Shown here: positions 23,185 to 24,258 of the stretch, piece after piece
Position numbering within the stretch: the stretch's first letter is position 1
Layout: each line of letters begins with the position of its first letter
Virus record (IMG/VR): IMGVR_UViG_3300025889_000071
Reading direction: 5' to 3' (one strand)
From: a virus
Taxonomy: Duplodnaviria; Caudoviricetes
Length of the DNA stretch: 64,000 nt
Position numbers and translations under genes: made by a program
Notes under the pieces: generated by a model
Told to the model about the DNA's origin: nothing
The model's input: the letters and a program-made list of their open reading frames with translations, nothing else
The model's database searches: none

Positions 23185-23406
23185 TAAGATGAATGCATAT
23201 TCTCCAGAGCTTTACAAAGATATCCTAGAATGCTATAATTATGAGACCAGAAACCCGACAGTCTATGGAAATGTTATTTGCAGCAAAATGGAATTTACCA
23301 AAAGCAGCGAAAAACGCAGGACTGACCAACAAGGAGATGAAAATTACATTTAACGAGTATTGTACTTTTCATCCACCAACATATAAACCTGAATAAGGTT
23401 TTTCTT

Positions 23407-23478
23407 GGGAGTGTCGCATATTGGTTAATGCCCATGCCTTATAAGCGTGTGAACCGAGTTCAATTCTCGGCATTCCCA
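23407..23478 (+). tRNA. trnI: tRNA-Ile (UAU)
   Basis: Acceptor GGGAGTG/CATTCCC; anticodon arm CATGC-CTTATAA-GCGTG; T arm CCGAG-TTCAATT-CTCGG. Confidence 0.85.
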
Positions 23479-23481
23479 CTT

Positions 23482-23554
23482 GCTCCTTTAGCTCTCTGGT
23501 GAAAGCTCTCTGCTCATAACAGAAGAAAGGTCAGTTCGATCCTGACAAGGAGCA
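23482..23554 (+). tRNA. tRNA with CAU anticodon (Met or Ile2)
   Basis: Acceptor GCTCCTT/AAGGAGC; loop CTCATAA; T arm GTCAG-TTCGATC-CTGAC. Confidence 0.85.
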
Positions 23555-23557
23555 CTC

Positions 23558-23629
23558 GGGTGATTGGCGCAGAGGTAGCGCAGTAGATTTACATTCTATT
23601 GGTCACTGGTTCGAATCCAGTATCACCCA
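23558..23629 (+). tRNA. trnV: tRNA-Val (UAC)
   Basis: Acceptor GGGTGAT/ATCACCC; anticodon arm GTAGA-TTTACAT-TCTAT; T arm ACTGG-TTCGAAT-CCAGT. Confidence 0.9.
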
Positions 23630-23633
23630 CCTT

Positions 23634-23916
23634 GCGAGTATGGTGGAATCGGTAGACACACCAGACTTATGAAAATTGAGCCTCATTTGAGAAATCTTAT
23701 GAGTGTAACTCCTCAAATTCGGGGAAACCTGTAAAATGGCAATCCCGAGCCAAGCATCGCAAGATGAAGGTGTAGAGACTAGACGGGGAGCACCTAAACC
23801 GAAAGGTATGGTGAAGGGATAGTCCAGACCACAAACCGTAAGGGCAAGGAAACTTGTAGTGGTAAGAAAATCTGTTGACCATTGCGGTCGTGGGAGTTCA
23901 AGTCTCCCTACTCGCA
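23634..23916 (+). tRNA. trnL: tRNA-Leu (UAA), intron-containing (exons 23634-23668 and 23867-23916)
   Basis: Acceptor GCGAGTA/TACTCGC; joining the exons gives CCAGA-CTTAAAA-TCTGT, a long variable arm and T loop TTCAAGT. Confidence 0.92.
23669..23866 (+). ncRNA. Group I intron (IC3-like, cyanobacterial trnL type), 198 nt, no ORF
   Basis: P1 exon CUU pairs with GAG (U.G at splice site); P AAATTCGGGGAAAC, Q AATCCCGAGC, R GTAGAGACTAGA, S ATAGTCC; GNRA-capped P2, P8, P9; terminal G. Confidence 0.92.
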
Positions 23917-23946: not shown

Positions 23947-24258
23947 ATGTCTTATCAATACAAAATCACCAGTTCATATTGTTGGTATAATAATGGCAGT
24001 ATGATTGTGAAAATGTATTTCATAAATGGCCTTCCATTTACTTTTGATGAACTTCCAGATGGACATTTACGCGATAAAGAATTAATTAAAGAAGCAAATA
24101 AATCAATATCTTATGAACCAGATGAAATGTATCGATATTCATTTTATCTGATTGATGAAGAAATGCATCCGATGCTTTTTCCTGTTGATTTGGAAAATCC
24201 GGAAGATATGCCAGACCAAGAAATAGAACTTTGTGATGAGCAAGATTTTATGCGATAA
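23947..24258 (+). CDS. Conserved cyanophage hypothetical protein
   Basis: IVKMYFINGLPFTFDEL motif, acidic. Confidence 0.7.
   Translation: MSYQYKITSSYCWYNNGSMIVKMYFINGLPFTFDELPDGHLRDKELIKEANKSISYEPDEMYRYSFYLIDEEMHPMLFPVDLENPEDMPDQEIELCDEQDFMR

Follow-up and report, generated by a model that had tools for sequence, protein, structure and literature searches.

Introduction

Group I introns of bacteria favour tRNA and rRNA genes, whereas phage introns are said to lie in protein genes only; a review of 2014 stated that all phage introns then observed were in protein-coding genes despite the many tRNA genes that phages carry (PMC3984707). A first, unaided reading of the DNA described here (the sequence-only reading) had likewise described phage group I introns as best known from protein genes. 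The present work concerns a phage tRNA-Leu(UAA) gene split by a 198-nt group I intron, which lies on the + strand at positions 23634-23916 of a 64,000-nt stretch of the IMG/VR virus record IMGVR_UViG_3300025889_000071 (Duplodnaviria; Caudoviricetes); that whole stretch is referred to below as the window. Introns in phage tRNA genes were unreported before those of the Lak megaphages according to Devoto et al. 2019 (PMC6784885), and these "enigmatic" introns, although they too interrupt phage tRNA genes, are short and, unlike the window intron, were not classed as group I. A search of the open-access literature yielded no account of a phage tRNA gene with a group I intron, although reports published elsewhere could be missed by such a search.

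The cyanobacterial and plastid trnL intron resembles the window intron in its gene, its site (CUU/AAAA, the slash marking the insertion point), its U-1/omega-G pair of boundary residues, its IC3-type core with P, Q, R and S elements and its lack of an open reading frame (ORF). It differs in being carried by a cell or plastid and in length (median 276 nt, minimum 212 nt in 20 cyanobacterial introns sampled), whereas the window copy is phage-borne, shows about 66% core identity to the cyanobacterial introns and falls outside their clade. Introns that lie between U34 and A35 in a tRNA with a UAA anticodon make up the class Leu.3Ug, and the other bacterial members (Alphaproteobacteria, Acidobacteriota and others) share the site and a 20-nt R motif with the window intron but are longer (median 235 nt, minimum 202 nt), and none among 343 cellular loci matches the window intron over its full length at 85% identity or more.

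The intron of the tRNA-Ile(CAU) gene of Azoarcus sp. BH72, about 205 nt long, is a model IC3 ribozyme. This small intron likewise interrupts a tRNA anticodon loop, and it shares with the window intron a 3-base-pair (bp) exon-guide P1, a GAAA-capped P2, a receptor-like P8 and near-identical R and S elements; it sits in another tRNA and at another site (Ile2.5Ug), and the window intron differs in having a P5 of only 2-3 bp and a three-way P9 domain. The pairing of an ORF-less intron with a free-standing endonuclease, termed collaborative or trans homing, was first seen with the psbA intron of phage S-PM2 (Zeng et al. 2009, as reviewed in PMC3984707). The S-PM2 intron and its endonuclease F-CphI act at a protein gene, whereas here the target is a tRNA gene, the nuclease found in relatives is an HNH protein of about 155 aa, and the window has none.

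Results

A tRNA-Leu(UAA) gene interrupted in its anticodon

The gene is interrupted between U34 and A35, the position of class Leu.3Ug, and consists of the following parts.

23634-23668, + strand: 5' exon, 35 nt, with acceptor, D arm, 5' anticodon stem and C32 U33 U34, ending in CUU
23669-23866, + strand: intron, 198 nt, ORF-less, IC3-like, class Leu.3Ug, with omega-G at 23866 (Rfam, covariation and minimum free energy (MFE) fold)
23867-23916, + strand: 3' exon, 50 nt, starting with AAAA (A35-A38), with 3' anticodon stem, long variable arm, T arm, acceptor and A73

When joined, the exons form an 85-nt class II cloverleaf with the anticodon loop CUUAAAA, which ARAGORN called as tRNA-Leu(taa). 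Synechococcus phage S-CAM4 has an uninterrupted tRNA-Leu(TAA) that aligned end to end with the product and was identical to it at 79 of 85 positions; the 5' exon had the same length as its counterpart in that intron-less gene (33/35 identical), and where the D stem (C-G to U-A) and the variable arm differed, the changes were compensatory. CCA is not encoded by the 3' exon, and no ORF was found on the + strand of the intron. The split gene was missed by ARAGORN with default settings and was mis-parsed as "tRNA-Tyr(ata)" when introns were allowed, so that the insertion site was placed at U34/A35 by homology to the intron-less alleles. The insertion after the wobble U at the classical trnL site, the restored loop and the absence of an ORF had all been proposed in the sequence-only reading and are borne out here.

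Ribozyme anatomy and covariation

A search with the Rfam model Intron_gpI (RF00028) matched 23659-23848 (+ strand) with 63.3 bits (gathering cut-off 50, E 1e-13), the model being aligned over its full length (1-253); this was the sole match to the model in the 89-kb contig. Placement in subgroup IC3 is tentative and goes by resemblance to bacterial tRNA introns rather than by a subgroup-specific model, these introns being all IC3 in a survey that covered bacterial and archaeal genomes only (Williams 2020). The IC3 architecture comprises a P2, no P5abc extension and tetraloop contacts L2/P8 and L9/P5; a GAAA-capped P2, a receptor-like P8 and the lack of P5abc were seen, but P5 is too short for a canonical receptor. 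The elements were placed as follows.

23666-23680, + strand: P1, exon CUU (23666-23668) with guide GAG (23678-23680), U23668.G23678 wobble and A23669-U23677 pair, modelled by hand
23682-23703, + strand: P2 hairpin with GAAA cap at 23691-23694; inner pairs covary (G-C/A-U, A-U/G-C); found in the MFE fold
23709-23714 with 23785-23790, + strand: P3; C-G to U-A compensatory change, 9 versus 10 sequences
23719-23724 with 23743-23748 (span 23719-23748), + strand: P4; G-C to U-A compensatory change, 4 versus 15 sequences
23728-23739, + strand: P5, 2-3 bp, enclosed by P4; the main size saving of the intron
23750-23770, + strand: P6/P6a hairpin with GCAA loop; exchanged entirely yet still paired in loci L047 and L059
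23775-23781 with 23820-23825 (S element), + strand: P7, its 5' strand being the R element with bulged A23776; Rfam alignment, invariant in 19 relatives
23791-23813, + strand: P8 with GAAA loop; P8a pairs covary
23828-23863, + strand: P9 domain, closing helix 23828-23832 with 23859-23863 and two small hairpins with GUAA and GAAA loops

Covariation was examined in an alignment of 19 non-identical relatives over 60 proposed pairs, with slid pairing partners as the control. Pairing was canonical in 98.2% of cells (28%-37% in the slid controls), and double compensatory changes were seen in 14 pairs (1-2 in the controls). Within the intron these fell in P2a, P3, P4, P6a, P8a and P9b, all four pairs of P9b covarying, while P7 was invariant and so speaks neither for nor against the model; it is the putative guanosine-binding helix. 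The unconstrained MFE fold gave P2, P3, P4, P6a, P8 and P9 independently (z -2.4) and recovered the GNRA caps that had been predicted from the letters, namely GAAA on P2 and P8 and GUAA plus GAAA in the P9 domain. The internal loop of P8 (CCUAAA/UAUGG) was likened by eye to an 11-nt tetraloop receptor, a motif of the Azoarcus intron.

The boundaries were conserved. All P1 positions were unchanged in 19 of 19 relatives, the predicted U.G pair of the 5' splice site (U23668.G23678) and the terminal G (G23866) were kept in all 19, and U-1 and omega-G were present in all mapped viral Leu copies. A P10 could form between U23676-U23677 and the leading A residues of the 3' exon. Also among the 14 compensatory pairs are 28-42 (C-G/U-A/G-C) and 29-41 (A-U/G-C) of the anticodon stem, the two strands of which are separated by the intron; the exons are therefore still under selection to form one tRNA; the same stem has one mismatch in the window, C27.U43. 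Taken on its anatomy and conservation, 23669-23866 is a genuine group I intron, and the phage tRNA-Leu(UAA) gene that contains it looks functional; we infer that the intron splices.

Intron polymorphism at a syntenic locus

The order DUF7294 gene, tRNA genes, split tRNA-Leu, orf103 and giant fibre protein gene is common to about 25 contigs, the proteins of which are 35%-70% identical. The features used for comparison are given below, the class I genes being described further on.

23947-24258, + strand: orf103 (phrog_4134), conserved downstream neighbour, starting 30 nt after the tRNA
L053 2742-3013; also L093, L102, L118, L119 and L080: class I tRNA(UAA), split
L368, L375, L385, L396, L402, L428, L432 and L443: class I tRNA(UAA), unsplit

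Across these contigs the split tRNA-Leu is 90%-98% identical, whereas the flanks just outside it are 65%-80% identical and the neighbouring tRNA genes of the same relatives only 68%-80%. Between L088 and the window the cassette is 98%-99% identical, against 45% for orf103 and 37% for the fibre protein. In six contigs an intron 91%-93% identical to that of the window occupies the same CUU/AAAA site at the same locus inside a 73-nt class I tRNA(UAA), the exons of which are only 57%-61% identical to the 85-nt class II exons of the window. In this class I tRNA (73-77 nt), which replaces the class II tRNA-Leu at the locus in some phages, the variable loop is short, the D stem has 3 bp, G1 is paired with U72 and position 73 is A; a 39-nt exon of it had no match among GenBank phages.

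When the locus was sampled by way of orf103 and without regard to the intron, 80 loci were obtained, of which 8 were split, 60 unsplit (with both body types) and 12 truncated or without a tRNA-Leu(UAA). On the orf103 tree the nine carriers require at least six state changes (mean of 8.2 when shuffled), and one set of identical orf103 sequences includes both intron states. The sequence GACUU/AAAAUC was kept in 63 of 63 split viral alleles and deviated in 15 of 60 unsplit ones.

These observations have to be weighed against an old, vertically inherited and non-mobile intron, ancestral to these cyanophages, held by constraint and often lost by precise deletion. Most positions are indeed structurally or catalytically constrained, precise loss would be easy through recombination with intron-less alleles of co-infecting phages, and the HNH genes found beside some copies have diverged as much as other phage proteins. 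Vertical descent does not readily explain why two unrelated tRNA bodies hold the same intron, why both intron states occur with identical orf103 sequences, or why the neighbouring tRNAs, constrained too, and the flanking proteins in the L088 comparison are so much more diverged than the cassette; we regard it as unlikely, though it is the strongest of the alternatives.

Nuclease genes beside the locus

An HNH endonuclease gene of about 155 aa lies some 35 nt 3' of the split tRNA in L057, L064, L032/L117, L059, L080 and L118, and the proteins of these contigs (at least six related ones) form one family with 53%-66% identity. HNH genes also adjoin three unsplit alleles, two of which deviate from GACUU/AAAAUC. 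Other nuclease genes were seen nearby: NUMOD3 nuclease-like ORFs in L028 (3055-3603) and L049 (2645-3001 and 3439-4062), and an HNH gene of another type upstream in L102 (2127-2750). Judged by this gene content, the tRNA-Leu/orf103 locus is a hotspot for homing-endonuclease genes. A link between the intron and the HNH family through trans homing is only suggested. The sequence-only reading had named reverse splicing or a trans-acting endonuclease as the possible means of mobility, and the second of these finds support in the free-standing HNH gene directly after the split tRNA in relatives, a gene that is absent beside the window copy.

The same genes bear on a second alternative, an adaptive intron that hides the anticodon loop of the gene or precursor from anticodon nucleases, as the sequence-only reading had thought possible, or from the homing endonucleases of rival phages, or that ties the supply of tRNA-Leu to GTP/Mg2+ or to the timing of infection. 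Defences that target tRNAs exist and phage tRNAs can evade them (PMC10264068, PMC11464382), and at a locus where free-standing nuclease genes gather, an allele with an intron in the target would be protected from a nuclease that cuts there. Set against this, 60 of 68 related loci have no intron, the mature tRNA is exposed after splicing anyway, and no defence or regulatory element was found nearby, so that we consider an adaptive role improbable.

Relation to cellular introns

Two samples were searched for cellular sources, one of 151 genomes of the Synechococcus/Prochlorococcus family and one of 151 genomes across the Cyanobacteria phylum. Rfam group I matches were present in 40 of the 151 genomes of the phylum-wide sample and in 1 of the 151 of the picocyanobacterial family; that lone match (L329, G076:C15:8605-8831, 94.7 bits) is outside any tRNA and unrelated to the window intron. 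The tRNA-Leu(taa) genes of Synechococcus WH7803 and Cyanobium BSA11S are unsplit and about 80% identical to the phage exons.

For trees, 190 tRNA introns were mapped precisely by position-weighted stem scoring and homology to intron-less genes. The 20 cyanobacterial trnL introns formed a closed clade (100/100) on a long stem with the window outside it, and the window intron fell inside a phage-only clade of 19 tRNA-Leu introns (99/84). A tree forcing the window and cyanobacterial clades together was not rejected by the approximately unbiased (AU) test (p-AU 0.96 and 0.68), and its likelihood was higher by 106 units than that of the quick tree and by 21 than that of the careful tree. A clearly separate origin of the phage and cyanobacterial introns, which the quick tree had appeared to support, was dropped, the joined tree having the higher likelihood; the claim is kept only in the form that the window intron lies outside the cyanobacterial clade and is least similar to it.

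Over 190 core columns the median identity to the window intron was 66% for cyanobacterial introns, 71% for Leu introns of other bacteria and 73% for those of other phages; the distances are slightly biased, since non-cyanobacterial and viral copies were retrieved with 18-20-nt core strings of the window. The R motif reads GGUGUAGAGACUAGACGG in the window and GGUGCAGAGACUCGACGG in cyanobacterial copies; the string AUAGUCCAGACCACAAAC was tried as a clade-specific marker and ruled out, being common to many bacterial and viral introns. The best cellular matches, among the 343 loci mentioned above, were alphaproteobacterial cores (83%-88% over 130-164 nt), while 32 viral loci matched at 85% or more over at least 180 nt.

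An exchange of the intron between the phage and a host that carries it had been suggested in the sequence-only reading. In favour of a recent transfer of the tRNA-Leu gene or its intron from a cyanobacterial host are the shared insertion site and intron class, the group I matches in the phylum-wide sample and the slightly better score of the joined tree. The host family is almost without such introns and its lone match is not in a tRNA, the tRNA-Leu(taa) genes of WH7803 and BSA11S are unsplit, the window is not nested in the well-supported cyanobacterial clade (the phylogeny with trnL introns thus failing to bear the suggestion out, although a sister position is not rejected), the cyanobacterial introns are the most distant with a different R motif, and the close matches are viral and the nearest cellular cores alphaproteobacterial. 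On these comparisons recent capture is not supported, and we hold it to be very unlikely; an ancient common origin of all Leu.3Ug introns is possible.

Carrier phage and codon demand

The window encodes T4-like baseplate, tail-tube and fibre proteins with best matches to cyanomyoviruses at only 35%-41% identity, and the contig opens, outside the window, with a psbA fragment (G000:C1:1-543, L246), the protein of which is 97%-98% identical to Synechococcus/Cyanobium psbA. By the cyanomyovirus matches and the picocyanobacterial psbA, the contig is a divergent cyanomyovirus-like (T4-like) phage genome, about 42% complete, whose hosts are likely marine or freshwater picocyanobacteria of the Synechococcus/Cyanobium family. 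The relative L053 comes from metagenome 3300044608 and the record name of one Cyanobium metagenome-assembled genome with a psbA match bears the same metagenome id, so part of the phage clade may be freshwater.

The split gene is preceded by three further tRNA genes (ARAGORN/Rfam scans).

23407-23479, + strand: tRNA-Ile(UAU)
23482-23555, + strand: Met-type tRNA(CAU)
23558-23631, + strand: tRNA-Val(UAC)

This cluster (23407-23631) and the split tRNA-Leu probably form a single transcription unit. All four tRNAs (23407-23916) read A-ending codons (AUA, GUA and UUA; the CAU type may be Ile2), a set that fits a phage of 36% guanine-cytosine (GC) content in a host of higher GC, the window having 36% and candidate host DNA 59%-67%. 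A promoter-like site with 11 of 12 matches lies upstream at 23211-23239, such sites being no commoner in the region than expected by chance. UUA is the top Leu codon in the window (33% of Leu, 23 per 1000), and the level of Leu(UAA) tRNA limits, and can decide, infection of Synechococcus WH5701 by cyanophage Syn9 (PMC11726456). The phage thus has a real use for tRNA-Leu(UAA), which argues that the intron must splice. A dead element, with an intron that has lost splicing inside a tRNA pseudogene, could be read into the minimal P5 and the C27.U43 mismatch, yet it is scarcely credible given the compensatory changes that keep the tRNA and ribozyme helices across relatives, the invariant catalytic core, the 100% identical intron in L365, a contig from another sample, and the heavy use of UUA.

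Distribution and size of phage tRNA introns

A 20-nt string from the R element was found in at least 120 viral contigs, and in 87 of the 120 listed the core lay inside a split tRNA. Among the listed viral copies that were re-mapped, 61 were Leu.3Ug and the rest were in Arg(UCU), Lys(UUU), CAU-type and Thr(UGU) tRNAs, although these non-Leu classes may include mis-parses, such as an Arg(CCU) read as "ATG". Among cultured cyanophages of the collection, only intron-less tRNA-Leu alleles were seen. The survey of phage tRNA-Leu genes proposed at the outset thus yields at least 61 viral Leu.3Ug copies.

The phage Leu.3Ug introns had a median length of 200 nt and a minimum of 185 nt, and introns of other phage tRNAs measured 162-187 nt. 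Short copies were seen in L044 and L120 (tRNA-Lys(UUU), 184-185 nt), L095 (Leu, 185 nt), L040 (187 nt) and L039 (162 nt, with an uncertain parse), and if their boundaries are right these five are candidates for the smallest natural IC3 ribozymes. The window intron is, as first remarked, shorter than the 205 nt of Azoarcus; its length is nevertheless typical of phage copies, and since smaller ones exist it sets no record.

The GenBank huge-phage records LR756501/LR756503 (735 kb) and LR756511 contain unannotated split tRNA-Leu genes. The tRNA-Leu(UAA) is split at the same site in L001 (1494-1784, LR756501) and L003 (868-1654, LR756511); one of the two introns is 205 nt long and the other about 700 nt, and the latter may hold an insert or an ORF. 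Rfam at its gathering threshold gave no match in L001-L003, though L001 clearly has a homologous split tRNA-Leu, and its model is weak on such compact copies. In the cultured actinophage Gordonia phage Daredevil (NC_048021 at about 41.8-42.1 kb, L445 539-850) an unannotated tRNA-Lys(UUU) is split at CUU/UUAA by an intron of about 238 nt with the same group I core, an annotated HNH endonuclease gene lying about 450 nt away, which makes Daredevil a tractable system for splicing of phage tRNA introns. The same core also occurs between two ORFs that are both annotated as capsid protein in the podoviruses L002 (about 1464-1654, Pelagibacter phage HTVC120P) and L446 (about 672-857, uvDeep KM23-C739), and directly after a DNA polymerase I ORF in L447 (about 675-879, crAss-like cr116_1); these are probably unannotated group I introns that split protein genes.

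Discussion

We think it likely that the window carries a working cyanophage tRNA-Leu(UAA) gene with a compact, ORF-less IC3-type intron that belongs to a selfish, mobile, phage-borne lineage. This reading rests on the observed anatomy, the family match, the covariation of ribozyme and exons and the intron polymorphism, from which we infer splicing and selfish mobility. After transcription of the tRNA cluster the intron would fold into P1-P9 and bind free guanosine, the 5' cut would fall after U34, held as the U.G pair by the internal guide GAG, and the terminal G of the intron would direct ligation and restore the CUUAAAA loop; the tRNA could then serve the heavy UUA use of the phage in a GC-rich host. 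The intron itself would spread between co-infecting phages into tRNA genes with GACUU/AAAAUC, the likely helper being the free-standing HNH endonuclease that adjoins it in relatives (collaborative or trans homing), and occasional reverse splicing or illegitimate recombination would bring it into a different tRNA body.

Several points weigh against this reading. The identity of the HNH proteins makes their spread look less recent than that of the intron, and their presence beside three unsplit alleles makes the link between intron and nuclease a loose one. The window has no HNH gene, the 30 nt between the tRNA and orf103 leaving no room for that of the relatives. The high identity of the introns could in part come from strong structural constraint and not from recent transfer, and retrieval with strings from the window adds the slight bias in distance noted above. 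The short P5 and the C27.U43 mismatch suggest that efficient splicing might need a cofactor.

The intron is thus of a known class at a known site; what is new is the carrier, and with it a distinctive, compact and apparently mobile phage lineage that is common in uncultured phages. A wider proposal, which we rate as slightly less likely than not, is that phages carry a lineage of their own, so far undescribed, whose ultra-compact group I introns home into tRNA anticodon loops (chiefly UAA, in any tRNA body, and also Arg, Lys, Met/Ile2 and Thr) and travel with free-standing HNH nucleases. If it is true, phage introns are not confined to protein genes, against the textbook statement, and intron-driven exchange, possibly with co-conversion of the anticodon loop, shapes the evolution of phage tRNA sets. 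The asymmetry between phage and bacterial intron sites appears to be an artefact of annotation, a blind spot: standard tRNA finders miss or mis-call such genes, yet one 20-nt motif finds them in so many viral contigs.

To RNA research the phage copies (185-200 nt) would be of value as minimal IC3 ribozymes of natural origin with a wealth of natural covariation, and a single locus with and without the intron, with two tRNA bodies and with and without the HNH gene is a natural experiment on homing into RNA genes. For the phages themselves, since the supply of tRNA-Leu(UAA) can decide an infection, the ribozyme step is a possible control point and a possible vulnerability.

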